From: Candidatus Omnitrophota bacterium
Lineage (GTDB): Bacteria; Omnitrophota; Gorgyraeia; Gygaellales; Profunditerraquicolaceae
DNA: 64,000 nt
NCBI GenBank assembly: GCA_041662125.1
Contig: JBAZTA010000001.1
Span: 324,761 to 388,760 of the forward strand
Direction: 5' to 3'
In this document: positions 1-15,221 of the stretch, piece after piece
Layout: each line of letters opens with the position of its first letter
Numbering within the stretch: position 1 is the first letter of the stretch
The notes under the pieces: generated by a model
Told to the model about the DNA's origin: nothing
Databases searched by the model: none
What the model saw: the letters and a program-made list of their open reading frames with translations, nothing else
Translations under genes and position numbers: made by a program

Positions 1-872
1 ATCCCTTCAGGATAACCGGAGCCATCATAATGCTCATGATGCTGCCTGACTAAATCGATAACGCCATTTAAGAACGTCAATGGTTCTAAAATCTGAGCTC
101 CGGTGATCGGATGACGCTTCACCAATTCCCACTCTTCCGCGGTCAAAGAAGATGGTTTCATCAAAATACTATCTTCGATCCCAATCTTCCCGAGATCATG
201 CAATTCACAGGCTTCCCTGATCAATTCCGTCTCTTTAACCGACAAATGCATTTCCTGGGCGATTACCACGGCATATTTTGCAACATTCATTGAATGGCTA
301 TGCGTATAGTGATCCCGCGCATCAATAGCCTCAGCTAATGCCTTGATAGTGCGCATATAGGTCGCACGTAAATCCTGATATAAACGGGTCAGGTTAAGAG
401 TAGATTCCTCAATTCTTTTCGCAAGCAGCGTATTCTGCTTTTGCAAAGCATTATTTTGTTCTCTCTGGCCGTGGTAAGATTTCCGGGCACCGACTAAGTG
501 CGCGTGTAATTCAGCGCCCTTGTTAATCAAAAAAAGCAATTTATGCAGATCAAACGGCTTATGGATAACGCTGTAAATCCCCGTAATCGAAGCATCTTCG
601 GCTACCGAAGAATTTTTTTCATCAAGTGCCCCGATAATGACACAATCAGGGTCGATCATTCTGGCTTCTTTTAAAAACTTTGCGTCTTCCTCATCAAACT
701 CACCTATCGCATTCACCACAACATTAAAACCGCCCTGACGCAACGCCTCTAAAGCTTCTGTGTGATCGATTTTAAAAACACCGACATACCTTTTATCAAT
801 CAAGAGAGTCTCACGCACAAGGTTATTTGAAACTTCATCATTATCAATTACCAAGAACTTGACCTGCTCCAA
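1..872 (-). CDS. Response regulator with receiver domain fused to an HD-GYP c-di-GMP phosphodiesterase domain. The 3' end is truncated by the window edge; a TTG start follows a GGAGG RBS.
   Basis: Manual minus-strand translation gives LEQVKFLVIDND (receiver), then HD..HDLGK..HHEHYDGSGYPEG (HD-GYP motifs). GGAGG lies 7 nt upstream of TTG at 870-872. Confidence 0.8.
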   Translation of the reverse strand, partial: MEQVKFLVIDNDEVSNNLVRETLLIDKRYVGVFKIDHTEALEALRQGGFNVVVNAIGEFDEEDAKFLKEARMIDPDCVIIGALDEKNSSVAEDASITGIYSVIHKPFDLHKLLFLINKGAELHAHLVGARKSYHGQREQNNALQKQNTLLAKRIEESTLNLTRLYQDLRATYMRTIKALAEAIDARDHYTHSHSMNVAKYAVVIAQEMHLSVKETELIREACELHDLGKIGIEDSILMKPSSLTAEEWELVKRHPITGAQILEPLTFLNGVIDLVRQHHEHYDGSGYPEG

Positions 873-874
873 AA

Positions 875-2644
875 TTATTCCTCCGTTGTTATCCTCAAGG
901 CTTCTTCAAACGTGGTCAAACCTTCTCTTACCTTGACAAACGCGTCATCACGCAGCGTTTTCATCCCGCATTTTTCAATCGCATAAGCTTTAATCTCATC
1001 TATAGACTTCTTTTTAATGATCATTTCGCGCAAGAAATCATTGATCAACAAAGCTTCCAGGATAGCTATTCTACCACGAAAACCTGTATTATTGCAATAA
1101 CTACATCCAACCGCTTTATAAAAAATAACCTCTTTAGAAAGATCAGCTGCTCCAGAGGCATCTTTCTTATGTTTCCCCTTGGCTTCGGAATGAATAAAGC
1201 CGATACTCTCCAAGTAATCTTTGGGGAGCGTAATCGGCTGTTTGCATTTCGAGCAAATCCTGCGGCATAACCGCTGAGCGCAGACCATAATCAGGCTTGA
1301 ACCGACTAAAAAAGGCTCAATCCCCATATCAACCAAACGCGTAATACTCGTAATCGCGTCATTGGTATGCAAGGTAGAAAGGACCAACTGGCCGGTAAGC
1401 GATGCCTTGACAGCAATATCCGCGGTTTCAGAATCACGTATTTCCCCGATCATAATGATATCCGGGCTTTGGCGTAATAATGCGCGCAGGCCCGTAGCAA
1501 ATGTCAGCCCGATATCAGCTTTTACCTGTATCTGCGTTACGCCGCCAACTTGATATTCCACAGGGTCTTCAACGGTAATGATATTCCTTTCGGGAGTATT
1601 CAGCTGGGTTAATACCGAATACAGCGTTGTCGATTTACCGCTACCCGTAGGCCCGGTAACCAGGATCATCCCAAAAGGTTTAGCGATCGCCGCCTTAAAA
1701 ACATCATGCGGCGCCTGAGAAAAACCTAATTTTTCCAGGCCGATAGATAAAGTCCCTTTATCCAAGATCCTCAATACGAATTTCTGGCCGCCGGAAACCG
1801 GTAATCCCGAAACACGGAAATCAATTTCTTTACCTTCATAACGGATTTTAAACCTTCCGTCCTGGGGTATACGGTTCTCCGTAATATCCAATTCGGAAAT
1901 AATCTTAATACGCGCAATAACAGCGTTTTGTTTGCTTTTCGGGATATCAAACATCTCATGCAACGCTCCATCAATACGGAAGCGTATGCGTAACCCTTGA
2001 TCATCCGGTTCAATATGAATATCAGATGCCCTGCGTTTCAAGGCTTCAGTAATCATCAAATCAACCAATTTAACAATGAACGGCTTTTCGCTTTCCTGCA
2101 GCGCGCCAGAGATCTCAATATTCTCTTCTTTCATGACCTCGATGCTTTGTTTCTCCGTACTCCCCGCAGCATACGAGTCATCCTGCAAAAGTTGATTCAT
2201 TGAGTTTGTTTCGGCAGCATAATGAGTTTCAATAGCTTTAATAATCTCATCATACGGGCTTAATACAATATCGATATTAAAACCCGTAAGCGCCTTTAAA
2301 TCATCAAGGGCGAAGATATTAAGCGGGTCAGAGATGGCAACCGTCAAAGTTCTACCGATCTGTGAAAGCGGGATTACATTATATTGCCGGGCGATATGCT
2401 CAGGGATCAACTTGATGATTTCAACATCTACTTTATATTTCGCCAAATGGATCGTCGGGATATAGAGCTGGGTAGAGAGAAGCGAAAGCAGATTTTCTTC
2501 TGAGATAAACCCATTCTCGACTAAGACCCTGCGCAAAGAAACATGCTTCTGTTTTTGGATCAAGACAGCCTTCTCCAGCTGCTCCTGAGTCAAGTGTTTG
2601 CCCTTAATAAGTACATCGATTATCGTATCTTTGAGAGTTTGCAT
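875..2644 (-). CDS. GspE/PilB-family type IV pilus / type II secretion assembly ATPase (paralog A), with an N-terminal GSPII_E N domain.
   Basis: Walker A GPTGSGKSTT, Walker B DIIMIGEIRD and a C-terminal tetracysteine motif (CRRICSKC...GCSYC). The N-terminus carries an MshEN-like LIKGKHLTQEQLEKAVLIQ motif. Confidence 0.9.
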   Translation of the reverse strand: MQTLKDTIIDVLIKGKHLTQEQLEKAVLIQKQKHVSLRRVLVENGFISEENLLSLLSTQLYIPTIHLAKYKVDVEIIKLIPEHIARQYNVIPLSQIGRTLTVAISDPLNIFALDDLKALTGFNIDIVLSPYDEIIKAIETHYAAETNSMNQLLQDDSYAAGSTEKQSIEVMKEENIEISGALQESEKPFIVKLVDLMITEALKRRASDIHIEPDDQGLRIRFRIDGALHEMFDIPKSKQNAVIARIKIISELDITENRIPQDGRFKIRYEGKEIDFRVSGLPVSGGQKFVLRILDKGTLSIGLEKLGFSQAPHDVFKAAIAKPFGMILVTGPTGSGKSTTLYSVLTQLNTPERNIITVEDPVEYQVGGVTQIQVKADIGLTFATGLRALLRQSPDIIMIGEIRDSETADIAVKASLTGQLVLSTLHTNDAITSITRLVDMGIEPFLVGSSLIMVCAQRLCRRICSKCKQPITLPKDYLESIGFIHSEAKGKHKKDASGAADLSKEVIFYKAVGCSYCNNTGFRGRIAILEALLINDFLREMIIKKKSIDEIKAYAIEKCGMKTLRDDAFVKVREGLTTFEEALRITTEE

Positions 2645-2674: not shown

Positions 2675-4390
2675 CTATTCATCCGGAGCAGTGACGCGCA
2701 AAACTTCTTCCAGAGTCGTTAAACCACTTATAGCAACATCTAACCCTTGTTGCCGAAGCGTTCTCATGCCTTCTTTCCGTGCCTGCTGTTTAATCACATA
2801 TTCCTGCGCGCGTTCCAGGATCAATTCTCTGATTCGTACCGTCAGCAACAATACCTCCCCGATCCCGACTCTTCCACTATACCCCGTATTAAAACAGCGG
2901 GGACAACCTTTCCCACGGTAAAATTTCGCATTTTTTATCCCATACGCATCTAACTGAAGGCTTTGTATAACCTCATCACTAATACTATATTCTTCCTTAC
3001 AAGAAGCACAAATCTTTCGCAACAGCCTCTGCGCGACAACACATATCAAAGCAGAATTAATCAGGAACGGTTCAATACCCATATTCATCAGACGAATAAT
3101 AGCCCCACAGGCTGTCGTCGTATGCAAAGTCGATAATACCAAGTGGCCTGTCAAAGCGCTTTTGATCGCTATATCAATAGTCTCAAAATCGCGGATCTCT
3201 CCAACCATAATAACATTCGGGTCCTGGCGCAGGATAGAACGCAGAGCGCCCGCGAAAGTCAAACCGATATCAGGCCTTATCGTTACCTGATTTATTCCTT
3301 CGAGCTGAAACTCAACAGGGTCCTCTACCGTGACCAAGTTCTTATCCGGGCTATCCGTATACTTAAGGATCGAATATAATGTTGTCGTCTTGCCGCTTCC
3401 TGTCGGGCCACAAACCAGTATCATCCCGTGAGGAGACTTGGCTATCTTCTCTAACTTCGTGATCACATCTTCGGTAAATCCTAACTTTCTCACATCAAGC
3501 TTTGCCTGTGATTTATCCAACACGCGAATTGCCACTTTTTCGCCACAACTCGAAGGCAGTATTGATACCCGGAAATCAACCTCTCTTCCCATGATCTTTA
3601 CCTTAAAACGGCCGTCTTGAGGAAGCCGGTGCTCTGCGATATTCAGGTCTGACATAACCTTAATGCGGGAAACAATGGATTGATGGAGATTTTTAGGAGG
3701 GGACTGTTCCTCCTGTAAAATTCCGTCGACACGAAAACGGATACGTAATTTATTATCCCAAGGCTCAACAAGGATATCAGAAGCTTTCTTTTTAATGCCT
3801 TCCTCAAGGATCATATTAGTGATCTTAATGACCGGGGCCTCACGGCTGATAAATTTTAATTCCTGTTCACTCGGAGCGCTCTCTTTATCTTCTTTAATCA
3901 GCTCGATCGTCGAATCCGCCATCTCTTTAACCAGGCCGTCAATCATATCTTTGGTCGCCTCAGAATATGATTGTTCAAGAGCCTGCAGGATATCTTTACT
4001 GGAAGAAATAATCGGATTAATCTTGAAACCGGTAAGTGATTCTACGGTATCAATAGCAAAAATATTTAACGGGTCAGCCATGGCTAAGGTGACCGTATCA
4101 CCCATTTTAGAAACAGGGACGATTTGAAATTGTGTGGCGACATTAACGGGAATTATCTTGACAATCTCGGGGTCAATTTTGAAACGTTTGAGGTCAATAA
4201 GGGGGAAATTTAAACCTTCACTCAAGGCAGAAATAAGGTCATATTCTTTGACAAACTTCAAGTTAATAATAATATCGCTGAGCTTGCCTCCCTCTTTTTT
4301 CTGCGCTTCAATAGCCTCATTCAACTGCTCTTGAGTAAGCAGCTTATTTTTAATTAATATTTCTATGATCCTGTCTTTAAGTGAAATCAT
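2675..4390 (-). CDS. GspE/PilB-family secretion/pilus ATPase (paralog B).
   Basis: GPTGSGKTTTLYS, NVIMVGEIRD and CASC...CPRC motifs. The N-terminal domain carries ILIKNKLLTQEQLNEAIEAQ. Confidence 0.9.
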   Translation of the reverse strand: MISLKDRIIEILIKNKLLTQEQLNEAIEAQKKEGGKLSDIIINLKFVKEYDLISALSEGLNFPLIDLKRFKIDPEIVKIIPVNVATQFQIVPVSKMGDTVTLAMADPLNIFAIDTVESLTGFKINPIISSSKDILQALEQSYSEATKDMIDGLVKEMADSTIELIKEDKESAPSEQELKFISREAPVIKITNMILEEGIKKKASDILVEPWDNKLRIRFRVDGILQEEQSPPKNLHQSIVSRIKVMSDLNIAEHRLPQDGRFKVKIMGREVDFRVSILPSSCGEKVAIRVLDKSQAKLDVRKLGFTEDVITKLEKIAKSPHGMILVCGPTGSGKTTTLYSILKYTDSPDKNLVTVEDPVEFQLEGINQVTIRPDIGLTFAGALRSILRQDPNVIMVGEIRDFETIDIAIKSALTGHLVLSTLHTTTACGAIIRLMNMGIEPFLINSALICVVAQRLLRKICASCKEEYSISDEVIQSLQLDAYGIKNAKFYRGKGCPRCFNTGYSGRVGIGEVLLLTVRIRELILERAQEYVIKQQARKEGMRTLRQQGLDVAISGLTTLEEVLRVTAPDE

Positions 4391-4463
4391 GGTTTAACGT
4401 CAGGAATAGTTATAATCAAAACTTTTAACCATGGACTATAGACCATTGACCATGGACCAAGAA

Positions 4464-4922
4464 TTATTCTTTTCCTTTATAATATTTCTCAATTGCCCGT
4501 TTAATATCTGATAAGGTTGAAACAAATAATTGCACGCTGCAGCCGGAAAGCAATTCCACATCTTCTACCGCCTGTACATTCAAAGGATTAGACATTGCCA
4601 ACGTTAAATTATTTCCAATCTTATCGATGGGGATTATGAGGTATTGCCGGGCAACTCTGGCAGGAATGAGGTTGGCGATTTCAGCGCCAATCTCATAATT
4701 ACTTAAAGGAAGGTATGGAAAACCATACTGAACTGTTAACGCTTGAGCAATATCTTCTTCTTTGGCAAAACCCAATTCAACCAATACTTCGCCGATCAAG
4801 CCACCGCGTTCTTTTTGAAGATTAAGCGCTTTCTCCAGCTGGCCCTGGTTAATGATTCCGTGTTCAATAAGGACTTCACCTAACTGTTTTTTGATTATTC
4901 GCCTGATTTGCATAGCTTTCAT
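4464..4922 (-). CDS. Standalone GspE N-terminal (T2SE_Nter / MshEN-like) domain protein, a putative c-di-GMP receptor.
   Basis: The 152-aa protein has two tandem 24-residue motifs, QLGEVLIEHGIINQGQLEKALNLQ and LIGEVLVELGFAKEEDIAQALTVQ, matching the MshEN c-di-GMP-binding consensus. Confidence 0.7.
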   Translation of the reverse strand: MKAMQIRRIIKKQLGEVLIEHGIINQGQLEKALNLQKERGGLIGEVLVELGFAKEEDIAQALTVQYGFPYLPLSNYEIGAEIANLIPARVARQYLIIPIDKIGNNLTLAMSNPLNVQAVEDVELLSGCSVQLFVSTLSDIKRAIEKYYKGKE

Positions 4923-4974: not shown

Positions 4975-6402
4975 CTACACTAAAATACGGTTTTTGCCCT
5001 GTTTTTTTGCCTGGGCCAAAAGCTCTTCAGCTTTTGAAAGCAACTCTTCGGCAGTACTGCCATCAAGAGGATTTTCGCTTAAGCCTCCGCTGACCGTAAG
5101 CCGTCGATTCGTGTCGCTTTCTTGTTTAAAACTTTTTTCTAGATTTTCCCGAATGCCTTCGGCTATTTCTTGCGCCTGCCGTTTATTTTTCTCCGGGAAA
5201 ACAATAGCAAACTCATTATCGTCAAATCGAGCCACGCGGTCAATCTCAGTGACAGAATCCCTGATCAAATACGCGATTTTCTTTAATTGCTCATCCACTG
5301 CTGCCGCATCAACCAAGCTTCGATATTTTACAAAATCATCAATATTCAACAAGACCAAAGAACACGGCCGCTGCCTGACTATTGCCCTGCGAATTTCTTC
5401 TTGCAGCCGTATTAAAATATATGTTTTATTATATAACCCGGTAAGCGTGTCTTTGACTTCCAGCTTTTCCACACGTTGAATAAGCCTCTCATGTTCAACA
5501 GCAATAGCTATTTGCTTGGTAAAAATATCGAGCAATTCCACGTCATCTTTCGAATATGAGAAATTATCTTTGGAATTCCCGACCCCCAGTATTCCAACAA
5601 GGTTTCCTTTTACATAAACCGGCAATGCCAGGGTATTCTTAACTTGGAATCTCTCATAAAAATCTGAAGCCACCTGGTCAGGCCAAACATTATCCTTATC
5701 CAAACACAACTGTTTCCCGGATTTTATCAGAGCTTCAAACAATGGTTCAGAAGAACCCATCGTAATTTTGAATAACCCCTGATAATTTTTTCCTTCAGCT
5801 GAACGCATATACAATGTTTCTTCCAATTCATCCTTAAAGAACAAATAGGAAATTTCCGAATCGGCAAGAAAACGCGCCTTTTCAGTAACTAATTTCAGTA
5901 CCGCATCCAGCGTAACACCTTGAGAGATCAAAGAACTTATCTGTAATAAATGCGTAAAAACAAAAACATGCTGCTGGATGTTCAGGTTTATTTCACTGGT
6001 TTTCTGGCTATAACTCTCTAACTCCTCCATATTACTACGGATACGGCTGGTAAGCTGGTTTAATGTTTCTCCCAGGATACCGACTTCATCAAGAGGCGCC
6101 ATACTCACGGCATGATTGATATTTCCCGAAGATATTACCTGGGCATCCGTTGTAACAATAAGGAAACGGTTAATGATCTGATTAATCAATAAAACACCAA
6201 TACCAGCAATAAATACCGAACTCAACAAAAAAAGCATTATCTGGAAAGTAATGCCTGTTTGAGGGAAAACATAGTTTGCAAGTAAATAGATAACGACAAG
6301 AAAGGGAAGGACAAATATCAGGCAAAAAGCAATACTGAGTTTATCTTTAAGTCTTCTTGATTTTATCAACAGCTTATTGCTCTTTAACACATTTGCCTCC
6401 AC
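4975..6402 (-). CDS. Membrane sensor protein with 2 TM, HAMP, GAF and a degenerate GGDEF domain (predicted catalytically inactive). A GTG start is annotated; an internal GTG is also possible.
   Basis: TGLYNKTYI and LLNIDDF match the GGDEF fold, but the A-site reads RFDDNEF instead of RYGGEEF and the I-site RxxD is replaced by TEID. Confidence 0.8.
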   Translation of the reverse strand: MEANVLKSNKLLIKSRRLKDKLSIAFCLIFVLPFLVVIYLLANYVFPQTGITFQIMLFLLSSVFIAGIGVLLINQIINRFLIVTTDAQVISSGNINHAVSMAPLDEVGILGETLNQLTSRIRSNMEELESYSQKTSEINLNIQQHVFVFTHLLQISSLISQGVTLDAVLKLVTEKARFLADSEISYLFFKDELEETLYMRSAEGKNYQGLFKITMGSSEPLFEALIKSGKQLCLDKDNVWPDQVASDFYERFQVKNTLALPVYVKGNLVGILGVGNSKDNFSYSKDDVELLDIFTKQIAIAVEHERLIQRVEKLEVKDTLTGLYNKTYILIRLQEEIRRAIVRQRPCSLVLLNIDDFVKYRSLVDAAAVDEQLKKIAYLIRDSVTEIDRVARFDDNEFAIVFPEKNKRQAQEIAEGIRENLEKSFKQESDTNRRLTVSGGLSENPLDGSTAEELLSKAEELLAQAKKQGKNRILV

Positions 6403-6610
6403 ATACGAACAGCTTACATACCATTCATTACTTTAACAAAAAAGCTATCTTTCTACGGCCGAACCCGACTTAAAAAAACAATTTATGTATATTTATTATA
6501 CTACGCATCTTCTTTTATTTCAACAAATTAATGAAGCCATGACTTATGGAGCCATCAATTATAATTAAGCGACATAAGTCATCACTTGTAGCTTACTTGC
6601 CGGGCTGAAT

Positions 6611-6671: not shown

Positions 6672-8426
6672 TTACTCAGCACAATCTTTAATCTCCTGGT
6701 CAACAGCTTCCGCCTCACGCTTGAGAAAATCCTTGCCGACTCCCATATCGATAAAATCCCAAGGTAAAACCTCATCTCTGCTTCTATTCTGCAAATAAAA
6801 CTGTGGATCAATATCACACTCTCGAAAAGCATCCATCCACGTTTGAAGGTTAAAATATTCACCCCAGGCATCAAAGCGCGCGCCTTTCGAAAACGCTTTT
6901 AAGATAACAGCGCTTAGTCTGCGGTCTCCGCGCGACAACACTCCTTCCAGAAAACTCATATCCAGATGATGAAAATCAATTTTTAATCGTTTATTTCTTC
7001 CCTGCCCCCTTATATAACCCTGCTTTTCTTTGAGAGCAGCAATCGTATCCATCGCAAACCACTGAAACGGCGTATGAGGTTTAGGGATAAGAGGATTAAT
7101 ACTTATATTGACTTGCGCGGGCCCGGGGCTGAACTTTCTCTTTAATTCCGAAACCCGAGTTGCCAGTTCAATAATCCCATCCAAATCTTTTTTTTCTTCA
7201 AAGGGTAATCCGATCATAAAATAGAGCTTAACATGCCGATATCCATTGGCGTAAGCCTGTTCAAGAACCCGAAAGAATTCTTGGATATCATAATCTTTTG
7301 CCAGTATCCTTCGCAGCCTTTCACTGCCTGCCTCAGGAGCAAAAGTCAATCCTGTTTTCTTTATACTGGCGATAAGCGTTGAAAGATGCTGCAGGATAAA
7401 TTTCGGTTTTATTGAAGGCAGCGACACCGATACGGCATCTTCTTGAAACTTGCCAACCAATGACTGCAATAATATCTCTAACCCTGTATAATCGCTGACA
7501 GACAATCCCGCCAAAGAAATTTCTTCATAACCCGTGCGTTTATATAATTCACACGCCAAATGCAAGGCCTTTTCAGCATCCCGCTGCCGGAAAGGAAAAT
7601 ATTGGACCCGCGCCTGGCAAAAACGGCATCGGTTCGGGCACCCGCGCATAACTTCAAGAGTGATACGGTCATGAATAATCTGTATATACGGGATAAGCCA
7701 ATCCAGAGGATATGGGGATTTATTTAAATCTCCTACGATGCGCTTTTTAACCCTCACAGGCACTCCCGGGTATTTTGGCTTAAACTCTTTTATTACCCCG
7801 GACTCCAGAGAGGTAACCGAATACAATGCCGGGACATAAACACCTTCAATACCTGAGAGCTTTATAAGAAGCTCAATTTTTTCAGCATCACTTTTTTTCC
7901 AGGCATGATAACAATCAATGATTTCCACGATAGCCTCTTCCGCCTCACCGATAACAAAGAGATCAAAAAACTCATGCATCGGCTCAGGATTCAATACCCC
8001 CGGGCCTCCGCCGATAATCAAAGGATAGCTTTTATCCCGCGCACTCGATTGCAGAGGAATAGAGCCGAGCTGCAGCATATTGAGGACATTCGTGTAATGT
8101 AATTCATATCCCAGAGAAAAACCAACGATATCGAACTCCTTAAGCGGCCTTCCTGATTCCAGAGAGAATATTTCCTGATTCTTCTCCCGTAAGACTGCTT
8201 CTAAATCAACCGCGCAGGCAAAAAAACGCTCGCATGCCACATAGGTAAGTTTGTTGAGGATATCATAAATTATCCTGATACCAAGATTGCTCATCCCCAC
8301 ATCATATAAATCGGGAAAACATAAAGCAAATTTTACCTCAGCGCAGGAAATATCTTTTTGAGACATATTCCATTCCCTGCCGATATAACGAGCCGGCTTT
8401 CGCACTTGTAATAAGAAATCTTCCAT
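6672..8426 (-). CDS. B12-binding-domain / radical SAM protein (TIGR03960-like uncharacterized rSAM family).
   Basis: N-terminal VRKPARYIGREWN signature and a CxxxCxxC cluster, GCPNRCRFCQ. Length 584 aa. Confidence 0.8.
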   Translation of the reverse strand: MEDFLLQVRKPARYIGREWNMSQKDISCAEVKFALCFPDLYDVGMSNLGIRIIYDILNKLTYVACERFFACAVDLEAVLREKNQEIFSLESGRPLKEFDIVGFSLGYELHYTNVLNMLQLGSIPLQSSARDKSYPLIIGGGPGVLNPEPMHEFFDLFVIGEAEEAIVEIIDCYHAWKKSDAEKIELLIKLSGIEGVYVPALYSVTSLESGVIKEFKPKYPGVPVRVKKRIVGDLNKSPYPLDWLIPYIQIIHDRITLEVMRGCPNRCRFCQARVQYFPFRQRDAEKALHLACELYKRTGYEEISLAGLSVSDYTGLEILLQSLVGKFQEDAVSVSLPSIKPKFILQHLSTLIASIKKTGLTFAPEAGSERLRRILAKDYDIQEFFRVLEQAYANGYRHVKLYFMIGLPFEEKKDLDGIIELATRVSELKRKFSPGPAQVNISINPLIPKPHTPFQWFAMDTIAALKEKQGYIRGQGRNKRLKIDFHHLDMSFLEGVLSRGDRRLSAVILKAFSKGARFDAWGEYFNLQTWMDAFRECDIDPQFYLQNRSRDEVLPWDFIDMGVGKDFLKREAEAVDQEIKDCAE

Positions 8427-8455
8427 ATTTAGTAAAAAGTCTGTTTCAATTACCG

Positions 8456-9556
8456 TTATGCCCGGGAATTACTAATATTCGCCAGTATCCCGAGAGCAAC
8501 AAAAGTCACAAAAACCGATGAACCGCCGTAACTCATTAATGGCAGCGGCAGCCCTACCACCGGAGCCAGCCCTAAGTTCATCGCGATATTAATAAGAACC
8601 TGCACCCCTAACATATACGAAATACCAAAAGCCAATAACTTGCCGAACGAATCATAGGTACGTTCCGCTATTTCAATGCCCTGCTTAATTAAAAGAAAAT
8701 ATAAACCGAATAAGATAACACATCCCAAAAAACCCCATTCTTCTGAAAAAGAAGCAAATATAAAATCAGTATGGGATTCCGGCAGAAAATGCAACTGGCT
8801 TTGTGTCCCTGAAAGCCACCCCTTTCCAAAGAATCCACCGGAACCAATCGCTATTTTTGACTGAATAACGGTATAGCCGGCTCCCAGCGGATCAATATTA
8901 GGATTCATGAAAACAAGCAGGCGGTCTTTCTGATAATCCCGCAAGTAATGCCAAAAAACCGGGAGCAGCAAACAAACGCCACCCAATAACATTAAGAAAT
9001 ACTGGATCCGGACATTTGCCATAAAGAGCATCGTAACAAAAATACATAAAATCATGATACCGCTTCCTAAATCAGGCTGTTCGATGATCATTGCAACCGG
9101 CACAGCCACAAAAATAAAAGGCAAAATAAACGCCCTCCAGAGGCCAAGATTGCTTATTTTCAAAGAAACGTTATCAAGTGATTTGAGGCTGAAATACCGT
9201 GCCAGGAATACCACCACGATCAATTTCATTAATTCAGTCGGTTGAAAATTAAACCAGCTGAATTTAAGCCAACGCTGCGCCCCCAATCGTACAATGCCCA
9301 GCATAAACACTAAAAATAATAAAGAAACAGCAATACCGTATAACACATACGTCCAATCCCAAAACCGGCGATAATAAAATCGTGACATCATGAGAAAACA
9401 GACAATCCCAACAATAACCCAAAGCAATTGTTTCTGGGCAATTGACTGCCAGAGTTGGCCTTCTTTTTGATACGTACTGCTATAAATCGAAATAAGCCCG
9501 ATGCTAGAAATTAAGATAGCGATAACTAAAATTTTCAGCCCTTCTCTATTCATCAT
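8456..9556 (-). CDS. rodA: SEDS-family peptidoglycan glycosyltransferase RodA. The start is trimmed to MMNREG, and its ATG overlaps the mrdA stop.
   Basis: Polytopic FtsW/RodA/SpoVE-family sequence lying directly downstream of PBP2 and mreBCD. Confidence 0.85.
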   Translation of the reverse strand: MMNREGLKILVIAILISSIGLISIYSSTYQKEGQLWQSIAQKQLLWVIVGIVCFLMMSRFYYRRFWDWTYVLYGIAVSLLFLVFMLGIVRLGAQRWLKFSWFNFQPTELMKLIVVVFLARYFSLKSLDNVSLKISNLGLWRAFILPFIFVAVPVAMIIEQPDLGSGIMILCIFVTMLFMANVRIQYFLMLLGGVCLLLPVFWHYLRDYQKDRLLVFMNPNIDPLGAGYTVIQSKIAIGSGGFFGKGWLSGTQSQLHFLPESHTDFIFASFSEEWGFLGCVILFGLYFLLIKQGIEIAERTYDSFGKLLAFGISYMLGVQVLINIAMNLGLAPVVGLPLPLMSYGGSSVFVTFVALGILANISNSRA

Positions 9557-11265
9557 ATAATTCCTTCCTGAACCATTGATTCTATGATCTGCTTTGCGAT
9601 CAAACAAGAATAGTATCCCGGGCCTCCTCGCTCTAAGAATACACACATGACATATTTCGGTGATTTAAAAGGAAAAAACCCGCAAAACCAGGCGTGTGAC
9701 GGGCCGCCAGCAGCTTGAGCGGTACCGGTCTTGCCGGCAACCTGTACCGGAAGCGTAGATAAGATATTGGCGGTACCCTTAGGATAAGCAACAACGCCGC
9801 GTAACCCCTGGCGGATGAGTTCCATCGAGCTTTCCTTGATAGGCAGGCTAACCGATTTTCTCTGATAAACAGACACATCTTTTCCCGCGATAGCCTTAAC
9901 AATACACGGAGTAAGAAGCTTGCCTTTATTTGCAAAAACCGCCATCATTCTAACCATCTGCAAGGGAGTCACCAGAACATCACCCTGCCCTATGGAGAAA
10001 TTAGCCGTATCGCCTTCATACCAGCCTTTAAATTTGTGAATCTTTTTTAAAAGAGAGCTGGGGATATACCCGCTTAATTCATACGGCAACTCTATGTTAG
10101 TCGGCTTTGCTAAACCAAACTTTATCGCGTAATCATAGAGTGTTTGTGACCCAAGCATGAGACCGGTTCGATAAAAGAAAACATTGCACGAATGCGCGAT
10201 TGCCGCGACAATATCCTGTGAGCCGTGGGTATTCCAACACCCAAACCGTTGCCTGCCTACATACCACTGGCCCTCACAAAGAAAGGAGGTATCAGAATTA
10301 ATTTTGCCTGTTTCAAGGCCTGCAGTAGCGACGATCGGCTTAAAAATTGATCCCGGCGGATATAAACCGCTGATCACTCGATTTAATAAGGGAGACGTCG
10401 GGTCATTAAAAACGCCGGATATCTCCTGATGGGATTGTTTTATGAATATCGACGGATCAAAGCTGGGGCTGCTTGCCATTGCCAGTACTTCTCCCGTAAG
10501 AGGGTCCAGAATAACCACCCCCCCTTTTTTGTCAATCAGGCTGTTTTCAACAATCTTTTGTATCCTCAAATCAAGAGTCAATTGTATCTCTTTACCATTC
10601 TTTGGAGGCTGGAAACCAAGTACGCGCACAAACCTGCCGCGCCGGTCTACCTCTACCGATGTTCCCCCATCTTCTTCCCTCAAGAAATAATCGTACTTTT
10701 CTTCAATACCTCCAAAACCTACGATATCTTTCGTCTTATATCCGTAATCCTCCAATTTTGTCAGGCGCCAACGGTCAATCTCATTTAAATAGCCGATCAC
10801 ATGCGCGGCAAGCGCTCCGTAGGGATAATCCCGTAAAGGATGCGGCTGCACGATCACGCCGGGAAAATCTAATTTAAGCTCTTCCAGCGCTATTGCTTTT
10901 TTTATATCGATATTTTTTGCAACAACTACCGGAATACTGGAAGATACCAAATTTGCTTTAAAAGTGTTCCTCAAATCTTTTACGCTTCGTTCAAGCAGTT
11001 TTGACAAAGAAAAAAAAGTCCTATCTAAATCAAAGGCTTCTTGAGGTAAAACCAAAACATCATAGGAAAGGACACTATCAACGATCACACTGCCCTGCCG
11101 ATCAATAATCCTTCCCCTGCTTCCTGCCTGAGGGATAAGCCGGATGCAATTCTTCTTGCTTAAGACCGCATACTGCCTGCCCTGGAAAACCTGTAAATGC
11201 ACAAGACCCGCCGCAAGAAAAAGAAAAATGACTACCACTCCTATAGTTGCAACCTTTACCCTCAT
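9553..11265 (-). CDS. mrdA: Penicillin-binding protein 2 (elongasome transpeptidase).
   Basis: N-terminal TM and dimerisation domain; transpeptidase motifs SIFKP (SxxK), SCN (SxN) and KTGTA. Confidence 0.9.
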   Translation of the reverse strand: MRVKVATIGVVVIFLFLAAGLVHLQVFQGRQYAVLSKKNCIRLIPQAGSRGRIIDRQGSVIVDSVLSYDVLVLPQEAFDLDRTFFSLSKLLERSVKDLRNTFKANLVSSSIPVVVAKNIDIKKAIALEELKLDFPGVIVQPHPLRDYPYGALAAHVIGYLNEIDRWRLTKLEDYGYKTKDIVGFGGIEEKYDYFLREEDGGTSVEVDRRGRFVRVLGFQPPKNGKEIQLTLDLRIQKIVENSLIDKKGGVVILDPLTGEVLAMASSPSFDPSIFIKQSHQEISGVFNDPTSPLLNRVISGLYPPGSIFKPIVATAGLETGKINSDTSFLCEGQWYVGRQRFGCWNTHGSQDIVAAIAHSCNVFFYRTGLMLGSQTLYDYAIKFGLAKPTNIELPYELSGYIPSSLLKKIHKFKGWYEGDTANFSIGQGDVLVTPLQMVRMMAVFANKGKLLTPCIVKAIAGKDVSVYQRKSVSLPIKESSMELIRQGLRGVVAYPKGTANILSTLPVQVAGKTGTAQAAGGPSHAWFCGFFPFKSPKYVMCVFLERGGPGYYSCLIAKQIIESMVQEGII

Positions 11266-11774
11266 GCCTCTTCCACCTTAAGCTCTTCGTCAAGCGGCTT
11301 GTGAATACGCAAAAACGGACCTGATACTTTAAACACTGCCGGAAGAATCAAAGCGGTATACAGCGACTCAATGACTGCGATACGTAACAAATGCAGAAGC
11401 GCGATACCGTTTCCATCAAAGAAAAATATCATATGAGTAATAATGCCATTACAAAACGTAATGATGCCTACTGCCAGAGTGGAAAATAACCGCTGTTCCA
11501 GGGAGATCTTACGCTTAAGATGCATAATAATAAAGCACCAGAGCGGAAAAATAAGCGTATTAATCCCGACTGGATACACATTGAGAACATCTTTTATCAT
11601 ACCGGCACATACGCTTAAGAATAATGCCTGCTTTCGAGGAAAAGACATGGCAATAATAAACACAACCGCCAAAAGGATATCGGGCATAACGCCAAAAACC
11701 TTCAGGTAACTCAAGATTGTTGCCTGTGCCAAGGCAAAAACCACTATAAGAATCAAGAAAAGCCTGGTTTTCAT
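11262..11774 (-). CDS. mreD: Rod shape-determining protein MreD.
   Basis: Small polytopic membrane protein between mreC and mrdA. Confidence 0.7.
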   Translation of the reverse strand: MKTRLFLILIVVFALAQATILSYLKVFGVMPDILLAVVFIIAMSFPRKQALFLSVCAGMIKDVLNVYPVGINTLIFPLWCFIIMHLKRKISLEQRLFSTLAVGIITFCNGIITHMIFFFDGNGIALLHLLRIAVIESLYTALILPAVFKVSGPFLRIHKPLDEELKVEEA

Positions 11775-12544
11775 TGCATTATGATTAATACTTCTTCTAA
11801 ACTGGAAAGATTAACCGAGGGTTTAATAACAGCATAGCTGCTGAGGCCTACAAATTCTTTCCCAAAATCGACAACCGTGCCGATCATCAATCCTTGAGGA
11901 TAGTTTCCGGTAAGCCCGGAAGAAATCACAGGATCATTGATTTTAATATCACAATCTTTCGGCAGATATTTCATGATCAGAAAACCGCCCAAGCTTCCTG
12001 AAACAAGCCCTTCCTGCCGGCTGCGCTGATCAAGGGCAGAAACCCCAAGACTGGGGTCATTGATCAAAATGATCTTGCTGACAAAATCAGTGACTTCAAA
12101 GACCCTTCCCGCAAGCCCTGCTTCGGTAACGCAAACATACCCCTTTTTAATACCACTGGACCTGCCCTTATCGATCATAATAGCCGACGACCAATTTGAG
12201 GGGTCCCGCGCGATAACACGCGCCGCAATCATTTTAAATGAAGATTCCTGTTTCAAAGAAAGCAACCCCATTAACCGCTTATTCTCAAGTGCAACTTCGG
12301 TTGCTTCATTGAGCCTGCTTTTTAAGGCGTCAAATTCTTTTTGCAACAAGGAGTTCCTGACATAATTACGGTGATAGAAAACAATCCCGCGTATTTCCCG
12401 GGCAACTAAACTCACAACTGTTAAAGGCAGCTTCAGGATGATCAATAGCGGATTACGTAAGGCAGGGACAAACGAGGAAAGCAAAATAATGATAAACGCA
12501 GAGAATAAAAATGAAGTTATGTTTTTCTTATTAACGTTAAACAC
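11771..12544 (-). CDS. mreC: Rod shape-determining protein MreC.
   Basis: N-terminal TM, coiled coil and a C-terminal beta domain (GLAGRV...GLMIGTV); lies after mreB. Confidence 0.85.
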   Translation of the reverse strand: MFNVNKKNITSFLFSAFIIILLSSFVPALRNPLLIILKLPLTVVSLVAREIRGIVFYHRNYVRNSLLQKEFDALKSRLNEATEVALENKRLMGLLSLKQESSFKMIAARVIARDPSNWSSAIMIDKGRSSGIKKGYVCVTEAGLAGRVFEVTDFVSKIILINDPSLGVSALDQRSRQEGLVSGSLGGFLIMKYLPKDCDIKINDPVISSGLTGNYPQGLMIGTVVDFGKEFVGLSSYAVIKPSVNLSSLEEVLIIMQ

Positions 12545-12590
12545 ATTTCACTGTATTGACAGGATTACGTGAGGTTTGCCGGCTTAAACC

Positions 12591-13664
12591 TTAAGAATGC
12601 ATCTCAGATTTGACCGGAACCGTCACTTTCTTTAAATAATGGAGCTCATTTAATACTTTGCCTGTTCCGCAGACCACGGCAGTTAAAGGATCTTCAGCGA
12701 TATGGACCGGCAGGCCTGTTTCTTCCGAGATCAGTTTATCGATTCCCCGTAAGAGCGACCCGCCGCCTGCCATAACAATCCCATGTTCAATAAGGTCTGC
12801 AGCCAATTCAGGAGGCGTGCGTTCCAGAGAGATCTTGGCGATCTCAACGATCGCGCGTAAAGGTTCCTGCAACGCCTCGCGTATTTCTTCTGAGCTGATA
12901 GTTACGGTTTTCGGCAAACCAGCGACCAAATCCCTCCCCTTGACCTCCATGCTCAATTCGTCTTCCAAAGGATACGCCGATCCCAATTTTATCTTTATTT
13001 CTTCAGCAGTCCTTTCTCCTATCATTAAATTATATGTTTTCCTTAAATATTCAATGACCGCCTCATCCATTTCATCGCCGCCAATACGTATTGATTTGGA
13101 AAACACAATACCCGCAAGAGAAATAACTGCGATCTCCGTAGTGCCACCTCCGATATCAATGATCATATTGCCTATCGGTTCCTGAATAGGCAACCCCACA
13201 CCTATCGCCGCAGCGATCGGTTCTTCGATCAAAAAGACCTCCCGGGCACCGGCCCGTTCTGCGGAATCCTTGACCGCGCGTTTTTCAACTTCCGTGATAC
13301 CGGAAGGAATCGCGATCAAAATACGCGGCCTTACTAAAACCCGGCGATGGTGCACTTTTTTAATAAAATACCGTAACATGGCTTCTGTTATTTCAAAATC
13401 AGCAATGACCCCGTCTTTCATGGGCCGGATAGCCACAATATTGCCCGGAGTACGGCCGAGCATCCGTTTTGCCTCTACCCCGACTGCTAACACATTAGAA
13501 CTTCCCCTCTCAATGGCGACAACAGAAGGTTCTCGCAGTACTACTCCTTCCCCTTTTACGTAAACCAGGGTTGTAGCAGTGCCTAAATCAATACCCATAT
13601 CATTAGAGAATAAGCCTAAGATATAGTTGAAAAATGTTTTGGCTATATCTTTAATTTTTGCCAT
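12591..13664 (-). CDS. mreB: Actin-like rod shape protein MreB.
   Basis: [13 protein letters not shown] phosphate-1 motif, [11 protein letters not shown] and actin-fold motifs. Confidence 0.95.
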
Positions 13665-13877
13665 AAGACTCTCCTTGATGAGTAGAAATTTTACCTGCTT
13701 AAAGCGCTAAAGGAAGACAGAGAAACGGCAGTTACGCTTATCAGGCCACGTATGATTTGATTTAATAGAGGGATTAAACCCTTTATCAATTAAGGTGTTG
13801 TAATGAAGAAGACTATACCATATAAAAGAAAACCGGTCAAACAAAAATTTACGCTAAAAGTTATTATTCTTAAGCGC

Positions 13878-15221
13878 TTAAGGCATCATTTGCTTCAGTC
13901 GAACCAAGAAATCGGGAAAAGATTTATTCATACAGGCCACATCATCAACAATTGTTTGGCCTTCTGCCCTTAAACCAGCTACCACCATACTCATTGCAGT
14001 GCGATGATCACCAAAACTTTTAACCTTGGCACCGCGCAATCCTCTTTGGCCTTCAATAACGATATTTTCAGCCAAACCTTGCTTTTGAATAGTTATATGC
14101 GCACCCATTTTTTTTAAATTCTGCGTCATTGAGACAATCCTATCGGTTTCTTTAACCCGTAATTCCCTGACGGATTGAAACACGCTTTTACCCTGGGCAA
14201 AACAAGCAGCTACCATAAGGATCGGCAATTCATCGATCAAAGACGGCACTTCATCTTGAGTGACTGTCGTGGCTTTTAACATACGAGACTTCACCATAAT
14301 ATCAGCTACAGGCTCCTCACCCGCTGCCTGAACAGGCAGGAGAGAAACTTTCAAAAAAGCCCCCATTCTCTTTAAAACTTTCACAATACCGCTGCGGGAA
14401 GGGTTAAGGCTGACTTTCTGAATAATGATACAAGAATCAGGCACAAGCGTTGCAGCAACCATAAAAAAACTCGCGGAAGATATATCCCCGGGAACATATA
14501 TTTTCTTAGGAGAAATAAGCTCCTTATTGCCCCGGATGGATATTTTATTATGCTTGATCTTTATATCCGCTTTAAATAACGAAAATATCCGCTCTGTATG
14601 GTCACGGGTCTTAAGTGGTTCAATAACTTCAGTAACCCCTTGTTTGGTAAAAAGAGCTGCCAGCATGATCGCAGATTTCACCTGCGCGGAAGCAACCGGT
14701 AACCGGTAGTGAATAGGCTTAAGGTTTCCACCGTGTATGGTAAGGGGAGGATATTCTTCCGGGTGAGCAACATGAGGTTTATGGCGAGCGATTATCTGCG
14801 CTCCCATCATCCGTAACGGCCGGGTAACACGCAACATCGGCCTTTGTGAAAGTGATTTACCTGCTACCAACGTAACTTTAAAGTCACATCCCGCTAAAAC
14901 GCCCAGCACCAGGCGTAATGTCGTTCCGGAATCACCCACAAAAACAGGAGAAGACGGTTTCTTTAAACCAAAAATCCCTTGACCGAATACGGTTACCGTA
15001 TTACCAGTCAAGGGATTAAAGTTTTTAACTATCCTTACACCTAATTTACGTAATACTTCCAGTGTATAAAGGCAATCTTTATTTACCGGGAAGTTTTCTA
15101 TTGAAGTCTTTTCTTTTGCCAGAGCGCTGGCGATAATACACCGATGAGCTATAGATTTATCACCGGGGACACTCACGGTGCCCCGCAGATAAGGTATTGG
15201 CTTGACAACACATGACTTCAT
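13878..15221 (-). CDS. aroA: 3-phosphoshikimate 1-carboxyvinyltransferase (EPSP synthase).
   Basis: GTVSVPGDKSIAHR and VGDSGTTLRLVLGVLAG motifs; length 447 aa. Confidence 0.9.
   Translation of the reverse strand: MKSCVVKPIPYLRGTVSVPGDKSIAHRCIIASALAKEKTSIENFPVNKDCLYTLEVLRKLGVRIVKNFNPLTGNTVTVFGQGIFGLKKPSSPVFVGDSGTTLRLVLGVLAGCDFKVTLVAGKSLSQRPMLRVTRPLRMMGAQIIARHKPHVAHPEEYPPLTIHGGNLKPIHYRLPVASAQVKSAIMLAALFTKQGVTEVIEPLKTRDHTERIFSLFKADIKIKHNKISIRGNKELISPKKIYVPGDISSASFFMVAATLVPDSCIIIQKVSLNPSRSGIVKVLKRMGAFLKVSLLPVQAAGEEPVADIMVKSRMLKATTVTQDEVPSLIDELPILMVAACFAQGKSVFQSVRELRVKETDRIVSMTQNLKKMGAHITIQKQGLAENIVIEGQRGLRGAKVKSFGDHRTAMSMVVAGLRAEGQTIVDDVACMNKSFPDFLVRLKQMMP

Follow-up and report, generated by a model that had tools for sequence, protein, structure and literature searches.

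A free-standing MshEN domain, predicted to bind c-di-GMP, is encoded beside two PilB-type ATPases in Omnitrophota

Why would an operon that encodes two complete PilB/GspE-type motor ATPases also carry a separate gene for the N-terminal domain of such a protein? The question is raised by a 64,000-nucleotide (nt) stretch of the genome of a Candidatus Omnitrophota bacterium (assembly GCA_041662125.1, contig JBAZTA010000001.1, positions 324,761 to 388,760), hereafter the window. A small gene on its minus strand (4464..4922, an ATG-to-stop open reading frame (ORF) of 152 amino acids (aa)) lies directly upstream of two GspE/PilB-type ATPase genes; an earlier note on this DNA had placed it beside two ATPases. 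The product belongs to MshEN, a well-known receptor domain for cyclic diguanylate (c-di-GMP) that occurs in many architectures, and domain databases already assign these small proteins to it. With moderate confidence, we propose that this detached, full-length MshEN domain is the trans-acting c-di-GMP receptor of a type IV filament module (for a pilus or for secretion) that consists of two PilB-type ATPases and PilC.

The earlier note had described the small ORF as a free-standing MshEN-like domain protein equivalent to only the N-terminal part of GspE/MshE, and this description was borne out by Pfam, NCBIfam and structure prediction. The Pfam model MshEN (PF05157) matched residues 66-150 (E=8.4e-21, 74.2 bits against a cutoff of 23.1), so that the similarity first read from the letters was recovered by a profile search, and the NCBIfam model NF053729 (“c-di-GMP motif, MshE-related”) matched residues 13-65 (E=2.9e-17, 62.2 bits, cutoff 38). 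A phmmer search against PDB sequences identified Vibrio cholerae MshE (5HTL, E=1.5e-18), with the first motif of the small protein aligned to MshE R9-Q32, as well as the N-domains of PilF and of PilB from Geobacter and Myxococcus (down to 1e-46). The T2SSE ATPase domain (PF00437), the C-terminal N2 and P-loop ATPase part of GspE/PilB/MshE proteins, was absent from the small protein in the Pfam scan. The chain stops at residue 152, four residues beyond the boundary of the N1 subdomain as defined by alignment with both neighbouring ATPases. Lacking T2SSE and ending after N1, the protein is therefore not a PilB, despite bearing that name in some database entries. A second ATG at 4913 is the start codon in the orthologues and gives a product of 149 aa; the choice of start is immaterial here.

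Modelling of the protein chain led to the same assignment. In the AlphaFold2 model (built on 25 orthologues; mean predicted local distance difference test score, pLDDT, 79), the small protein begins with a four-helix MshEN_N bundle and continues into an alpha/beta MshEN_C (N1) subdomain, the make-up of a complete MshEN domain. The predicted helices span residues 14-20, 26-39, 43-49 and 55-66, the N-terminal 10 residues are disordered, and the four-helix part is followed by strands 96-102, 105-110 and 129-134 with flanking helices. These strands and helices lie within the MshEN_C/T2SSE_N1 subdomain delimited by the Pfam match (residues 66-150; 4473..4727, minus strand). The best PDB match of the model was c-di-GMP-bound MshE-N (5HTL; template-modelling (TM) scores 0.80/0.87, root-mean-square deviation 2.1 A over 138 columns), followed by the Xanthomonas PilB-N/PilZ complex and by c-di-GMP-bound structures of PilF GSPII-B. 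Further down the Foldseek list, at ranks 27 and 29, the model weakly matched EpsE-N1/EpsL and GspE/GspL complexes.

The residues that contact c-di-GMP in MshEN domains are concentrated in two tandem 24-residue motifs. Both peptides that the earlier note had quoted as fitting the consensus are present: motif I, QLGEVLIEHGIINQGQLEKALNLQ, occupies residues 13-36 (4815..4886, minus strand) and motif II, LIGEVLVELGFAKEEDIAQALTVQ, residues 42-65 (4728..4799, minus strand). They are separated by the five-residue spacer KERGG (residues 37-41; 4800..4814, minus strand), in which G40 is invariant and G41 nearly so. This 24+5+24 layout is identical to that described for V. cholerae MshE, and we numbered the motif positions accordingly (R9-L10-G11...Q32 for motif I and R38-L39-G40...Q61 for motif II). 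With each GTDB species represented by a single genome, a scan revealed 536 loci that encode a relative of the small protein. The best 80 of these were kept for residue counts of the stand-alone protein, while the counts for the adjacent ATPases are based on 76 (ATPase 1) and 60-61 (ATPase 2) sequences.

All 80 stand-alone copies have Gly at position 3 of both motifs; in the protein of the window these residues are G15 and G44. The hydrophobic triad and the glutamine of the window protein are L14, L29, L33 and Q36 in motif I, and I43, I58, L62 and Q65 in motif II. Among the orthologues, positions 2, 17 and 21 are Leu or Ile in 75-80 of 80, with L2, G3, L6 and L17 of motif I invariant; Gln occupies position 24 in 75/80 (motif I) and 80/80 (motif II), and Gly position 10 in 72/80 and 77/80, respectively. 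At position 1, motif I has Gln in 69/80 orthologues, right after a Lys that is invariant, while motif II has Leu in all 80, which is within the extended R/K/L consensus.

Published work on MshEN domains indicates what these residues do. The backbone NH of the position 3 Gly contacts the guanine base, on which the Arg at position 1 stacks. In V. cholerae MshE, the substitution G11L abolished detectable binding and thermal shift, G40I weakened binding 72-fold, and single Leu-to-Ala or Gln-to-Ala substitutions cost 9- to 38-fold in affinity, while the authors of the MshE study ascribed the failure of XpsE to bind to changes that include G11V and G40L. Leucine at motif II position 1 occurs naturally in the GSPII-B domain of Thermus PilF (L196), a 6-nM binder; when position 1 of motif I in the same domain was changed (K167L), the affinity rose to 2 nM, and its authors widened the consensus to R/K/L. 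From the retention of these contact residues, we consider it probable that the small protein binds c-di-GMP.

The situation is different in the two neighbouring ATPases. ATPase 1 (571 aa; 2675..4390, minus strand; T2SSE E=2e-137) and ATPase 2 (589 aa; 875..2644, minus strand; T2SSE E=1.8e-131) are of the PilB/GspE type and fall just under the NCBIfam equivalog cutoffs of both PilB and GspE. Walker A, Asp/His-box-like and tetracysteine motifs can be read off both translations. Each also has an N-domain matched by the Pfam MshEN model, so the earlier note's remark that the two ATPases have versions of their own holds for the domain. It is not supported for the binding site: these versions are degenerate, the key position 3 glycines being absent from all copies examined. 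In the window, position 3 of ATPase 1 is Ile (motif I) and Ser (motif II), both motifs have Lys at position 10, and motif II has Gly in place of Q24; in ATPase 2, position 3 is Ile (motif I) and Arg (motif II). The same holds for the orthologues. Motif I position 3 of ATPase 1 is Thr, Ile, Arg, Gln or Lys (Gly in 0/76) and motif II position 3 is Ser in 76/76; Lys is found at position 10 in most of them, and motif II position 24 is Gly, Ser or Glu, never Gln. In ATPase 2, motif I position 3 is Ile, Val, Met, Leu or Ala and motif II position 3 is Arg in 61/61, so that Gly is present at neither site. Three distant loci (L085, L088 and L092; 45-59% identity) show the same division between a stand-alone copy with the position 3 glycines and ATPases without them, whereas Geobacter PilB has RLG in both motifs. 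Both N-domains are thus predicted to be non-binders of c-di-GMP. Since the heads of the neighbouring motors have lost the c-di-GMP site and the small protein has kept a predicted one, the latter probably senses for the motors.

In two species-representative genomes (L051 and L055), ATPase 1 and ATPase 2 form a single ORF of ~1170 aa, which is either a natural fusion or an assembly error.

The genomic context also points to the motors as partners of the small protein. The order of genes on the minus strand of the window is murA, mreB, mreC, mreD, PBP2, rodA, a radical-SAM gene, HAMP-GAF-GGDEF, MshEN, ATPase 1, ATPase 2 and receiver-HD-GYP; the window ends inside the HD-GYP gene, which in related contigs is followed by PilC/T2SSF. 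The complete order GGDEF-MshEN-ATPase 1-ATPase 2-HD-GYP-PilC was found in 42 of 83 loci, and most of the others have the same arrangement ended by contig ends. Adjacent genes often overlap or are separated by little DNA (median gaps 7, 37 and 12 nt), which points to a single operon.

More distant relatives retain only part of this arrangement. Their gene orders are rodA, MshEN, ATPase, ATPase, a second MshEN, PilC and pilins in L085; receiver, MshEN, ATPase, ATPase, PilC and pilin in L088; and murA, mreBCD, PBP2, rodA, MshEN, ATPase, ATPase, HD-GYP, PilC and a canonical type IV pilin starting MKKGFTLVEIMIV in L092. The GGDEF gene is missing from all three loci and the HD-GYP gene from L085 and L088. 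The persistence, at 45-59% identity, of the MshEN-ATPase-ATPase-PilC order followed by a pilin gene identifies the motors and PilC as the invariant partners, and the module as a type IV filament system. We consider it somewhat more probable than not that the adjacent ATPase/PilC machine is the target of the small protein. In L085 (8001-12486), two free-standing MshEN genes (151 and 150 aa) flank the ATPase pair, the second occupying the place that HD-GYP has in the lineage of the window.

A further relative (L087, 477-2170) has a 158-aa MshEN gene followed, after a gap of 2 nt, by a 404-aa ATPase core without an N1 domain, so that PilB appears to be divided right at the domain boundary; a PilT-like gene lies upstream, and a full-length ATPase with a degenerate N-domain and then PilC follow the core. 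This arrangement indicates that N-domain and motor can be separately encoded. In a library of representatives of 50%-identity clusters, 24,187 matched at an E-value of at most 1e-3. Of the top 150 of these, 44 have no more than 185 aa, and half of the 44 (22) match the strict double motif with both glycines. One candidate (P0269) was not counted as stand-alone, as it reaches a contig end and is probably a truncated PilB, and two others (P0129 and P0247) lie on ~1 kb contigs whose gene context is uninformative.

The proposed receptor would work as follows. The four-helix MshEN_N would bind one c-di-GMP molecule through its two intact 24-residue motifs, and the liganded protein would act in trans on the motor complex, either by way of its N1-type subdomain or in a pair with one of the ligand-blind ATPase N-domains. 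As a result, filament assembly would be switched on or off, and the co-encoded HD-GYP phosphodiesterase would reset the signal locally.

Several points weigh against this proposal. The whole case, for binding as well as for the partner, is built on sequence. Motif I begins with Gln, whereas only Arg, Lys and Leu have been assayed at that position in published work, and Gln is outside even the relaxed [RKPN] search pattern of Wang et al. The GSPII-A domain of PilF still failed to bind after its consensus had been restored (owing to an extended helix alpha1 and inter-subdomain contacts), so that motif conservation by itself is insufficient to establish binding. Conversely, the N-termini of both ATPases score above the NF053729 cutoff of 38 (51.4 and 39.6 bits), and the label “degenerate” thus depends on particular residues; the Ser in motif II of ATPase 1 is small and might be tolerable for binding. 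The co-encoded GGDEF protein appears to be inactive (see below), so the source of c-di-GMP would have to be elsewhere in the genome. The split seen in L087 could be a sequencing (stop-codon) error, as it occurs on a single 4.3-kb contig. Finally, by mean pairwise identity over 52 loci the small protein (78.6%) matches the catalytic domains of the ATPases (74.3% and 79.3%) in conservation and exceeds their N-domains (74.2% and 63.3%), but this comparison is biased, because the loci were picked by similarity to the stand-alone protein.

The insufficiency of motif conservation is one of the arguments for a ligand-independent role, in which the free N-domain would be a decoy or assembly factor that competes with, or replaces, the N1 of the ATPases at a PilM/GspL-type platform or at PilC and so sets which motor engages, c-di-GMP being inessential. 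The small protein does possess a complete N1-type subdomain, which in GspE is the part that docks onto GspL, and the conservation of this C-terminal subdomain, which contains the invariant block NNLTLAMSNPLN, equals or exceeds that of the motifs. Nevertheless, the residues needed specifically for c-di-GMP contact, the two glycines and two glutamines among them, vary little or not at all in 80 species. In the adjacent paralogues the same residues have decayed although the fold was kept, and an HD-GYP phosphodiesterase is encoded in the same operon. We therefore regard such a role as unlikely.

A second explanation, which we judge to be about equally improbable, is that the small protein partners the flanking signalling proteins and not the motors, either relaying the state of the HAMP-GAF-GGDEF protein or regulating HD-GYP, for example as c-di-GMP feedback on its own degradation. 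The gene directly upstream of the MshEN gene (4975..6402, minus strand) encodes a membrane protein with Pfam HAMP, GAF and GGDEF domains, and the gap between the two genes (median 7 nt, often replaced by an overlap) suggests translational coupling. The GGDEF domain has DDNEF at the A-site and TEID in place of RxxD. Its A-site is non-canonical in 70/70 orthologues (GDDEF, GDNEF, DDDEF and others), and, with about four exceptions among the 70, Ser or Thr stands where RxxD has its Arg. Without a canonical A-site or I-site, the protein is predicted to be neither a cyclase nor a classical I-site receptor, and would hence need another output; the possibility that it serves the sensor as an active diguanylate cyclase was ruled out by the 70/70 degenerate A-sites. 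Against a signalling partner, however, stand the three distant loci described above, which have dropped GGDEF and/or HD-GYP and yet keep MshEN-ATPase-ATPase-PilC.

The HD-GYP gene (3..872, minus strand) encodes a receiver-like domain joined to a phosphodiesterase, with HDLGK and HHEHYDGSGYP in the translation, and runs off the left end of the window. Its full-length orthologue has 355-356 aa (14017-15087 in L001) with the domains Response_reg, HD_5 and HD. The HD and GYP motifs (HDLGK and HHExxDGxGYP) are intact in 47/47 orthologues, while the presumed phospho-acceptor of the receiver is Lys, Arg, Asn or Leu instead of Asp in the commonest variants listed, which suggests a pseudo-receiver. No match to PilZ or EAL was found by Pfam in the five operon proteins, nor in the annotated related operons. 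As judged from these motifs, the operon encodes a predicted c-di-GMP sensor and a degrading enzyme and no synthase. The earlier note had overlooked the degenerate upstream GGDEF protein, the intact HD-GYP and PilC of the operon, and the fact that the arrangement is a trait conserved in the Omnitrophota lineage.

The earlier note had suggested a diffusible adaptor or a competitor. The adaptor is the reading we favour. The competitor, an abundant, high-affinity binder that would either buffer free c-di-GMP or compete for it with the ATPases, appears quite improbable. It is true that isolated MshEN_N domains have been reported to bind as tightly as the full-length proteins or tighter, and that the Leu at motif II position 1 hints at high affinity. 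However, ATPases without binding glycines, predicted to be non-binders, leave nothing to compete with, and a pure buffer would need neither a highly conserved N1 nor fixed synteny with motors.

The last alternative, that the small gene is a non-functional remnant of a truncated or frameshifted third ATPase gene, draws on the tandem position of three paralogous N-domains and on an identity compatible with an old duplication, but it is refuted by the conservation of the gene, by its clean end at a domain boundary and by the lack of ATPase-coding remains in the short downstream spacer.

That conservation is extensive. In a collection of 5.8 billion proteins, the best 120 clusters all consist of proteins of 147-153 aa with 78-99% identity to the small protein, and wherever a source organism is given it is a Candidatus Omnitrophota metagenome-assembled genome (MAG). 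The best 80 of the 536 loci are likewise all from Omnitrophota (a phylum of the Planctomycetes-Verrucomicrobia-Chlamydiae (PVC) group) by title, although some bins annotated by third parties are labelled “Planctomycetales”. Compared with its orthologues, the small gene has a nonsynonymous divergence (dN) of ~0.15 with saturated synonymous divergence (dS), and a median dN/dS of ~0.06 where the ratio could be computed, which indicates strong purifying selection; the two closest relatives gave a dN of 0 at dS=0.46 (L004) and of 0.006 at dS=0.68 (L005). The constant length, the dN/dS, the clean domain boundary and the short spacer rule out a frameshifted fragment, and the earlier note's own proviso that the ORF might be part of a longer ATPase gene can be set aside: the next gene begins after a spacer of just 73 nt and has a complete N-terminus, which shows that the ORF was not cut off from it by a frameshift. 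The small protein shares 37-43% identity with the N-domains of its two neighbours and 40% with that of Geobacter PilB. This equal distance indicates an old, independent lineage instead of a recent truncation, and rules out a recent tandem duplication of a neighbour's N-domain. One MAG (JBAZEH01) has the operon on two contigs (L039 and L074), being either a mixed bin or the carrier of a duplicated module.

Between the MshEN gene and ATPase 1 lies a spacer (4391..4463, no strand assigned) made up of GGTCCAT-like heptamer repeats and palindromes, ACCATGG occurring four times. Two close relatives, L004 and L005, have a longer version arranged as a direct-then-inverted array, a potential hairpin; L006 does not have the element. 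It could be an mRNA-processing, attenuation or repetitive extragenic palindromic (REP)-like element. Upstream of the GGDEF gene, the best sigma-70-like match (TTGAAA-17-TATAAT, 11/12; 6495..6523, minus strand) is listed as the one candidate operon promoter, the numbers of sites in the promoter and terminator scan having been no higher than in shuffled sequence.

The pilus-motor module lies directly downstream of murA-mreB-mreC-mreD-PBP2-rodA (6672-15221), a linkage kept in L085 and L092 (47-59% MshEN identity). The longest rodA ORF (8456-9646, minus strand; GTG start, 396 aa) overlaps the PBP2 gene (9553-11265, minus strand) by ~90 nt; since the rodA orthologue in L001 has 367 aa, the true start is probably an internal Met. 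In a non-overlapping map, 56/59 ORFs of the window are on the minus strand. By their translations, the genes of the rest of the window are housekeeping-like (mre, a mur and cell-division cluster, ileS, ligA, ftsK, pnp and riboflavin genes), and a search of it with motif patterns and by inspection of N-terminal translations revealed no pilins, PilT, PilM/N/O/Q or canonical GGDEF/EAL proteins.

Known systems share individual features with this locus. In the MshEN domain of MshE (5HTL) and in the PilB N-domains of Geobacter and Myxococcus, the two-subdomain fold, the 24+5+24 motif, the glycines, the Leu triad and the Gln are the same, but the domain is fused to an ATPase; here the domain is a separate 149-aa chain, with Gln (I) and Leu (II) instead of Arg at position 1. 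In Thermus thermophilus PilF, as proposed here, binding and blind MshEN copies serve one motor system (A is blind; B and C bind), and GSPII-B has the same Leu at motif II position 1. The three GSPII/MshEN domains of PilF are, however, fused in one chain, whereas in the Omnitrophota operon the predicted binding-competent copy has its own gene and the blind copies are on two ATPases. In the FimX-PilZ-PilB system of Xanthomonas (7LKO), a ligand-blind, MshEN-like PilB N-domain receives the c-di-GMP signal in trans, and a degenerate GGDEF domain is part of both systems. There, the signal passes through an EAL receptor and a PilZ-fold adaptor; here, the presumed receptor is an MshEN paralogue and the operon has no PilZ or EAL, so that the likeness is functional only.

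Among the architectures tabulated by Wang et al. 2016 there is no plain MshEN-only protein, and the nearest entry is PA3740 of Pseudomonas aeruginosa, an MshEN_N with a divergent T2SSE_N1 that binds c-di-GMP and is linked to swarming. Like the small protein, it has no fused ATPase or enzyme domain; by its description it is set apart by a highly diverged N1 and a beta- and gammaproteobacterial distribution, whereas the protein studied here has a canonical N1 and belongs to a motor operon. Our search of the literature outside subscription-only papers found no description of a stand-alone MshEN sensor with ligand-blind motors, or of the Omnitrophota operon.

Tentatively, the proposal of a trans-acting receptor can be extended to a “disassembled” c-di-GMP-gated motor in Omnitrophota and their relatives, which would be a regulatory architecture of type IV filament machines undescribed before. 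The sensing MshEN would have been unbundled from two ligand-blind ATPases, and one diffusible sensor would pick, by the level of c-di-GMP, which motor (or whether either) engages PilC, in a module genetically tied to murA-mreBCD-pbp2-rodA and reset by HD-GYP.

Two routes are known by which c-di-GMP controls the motors of type IV pili and type II secretion: in cis, through the motor's own MshEN, and in trans, through FimX and PilZ. The locus suggests a third arrangement, in which a separate MshEN subunit serves motors that lack the binding residues. This would not be surprising in principle, and the hypothesis is clear and easily testable; a 149-aa protein and two ATPases would be a simple system in which to study how the poorly understood N-domain of PilB signals to the motor. 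The locus also illustrates that annotation by hidden Markov models over-calls c-di-GMP binding, as both ATPases pass the NCBIfam cutoff without the key glycines.

Pili are thought to be important for host or surface contact in Omnitrophota. The operon adds a concrete signalling module to this uncultured phylum of very small cells and, because free-standing MshEN proteins are common in metagenomes, the principle may be widespread.

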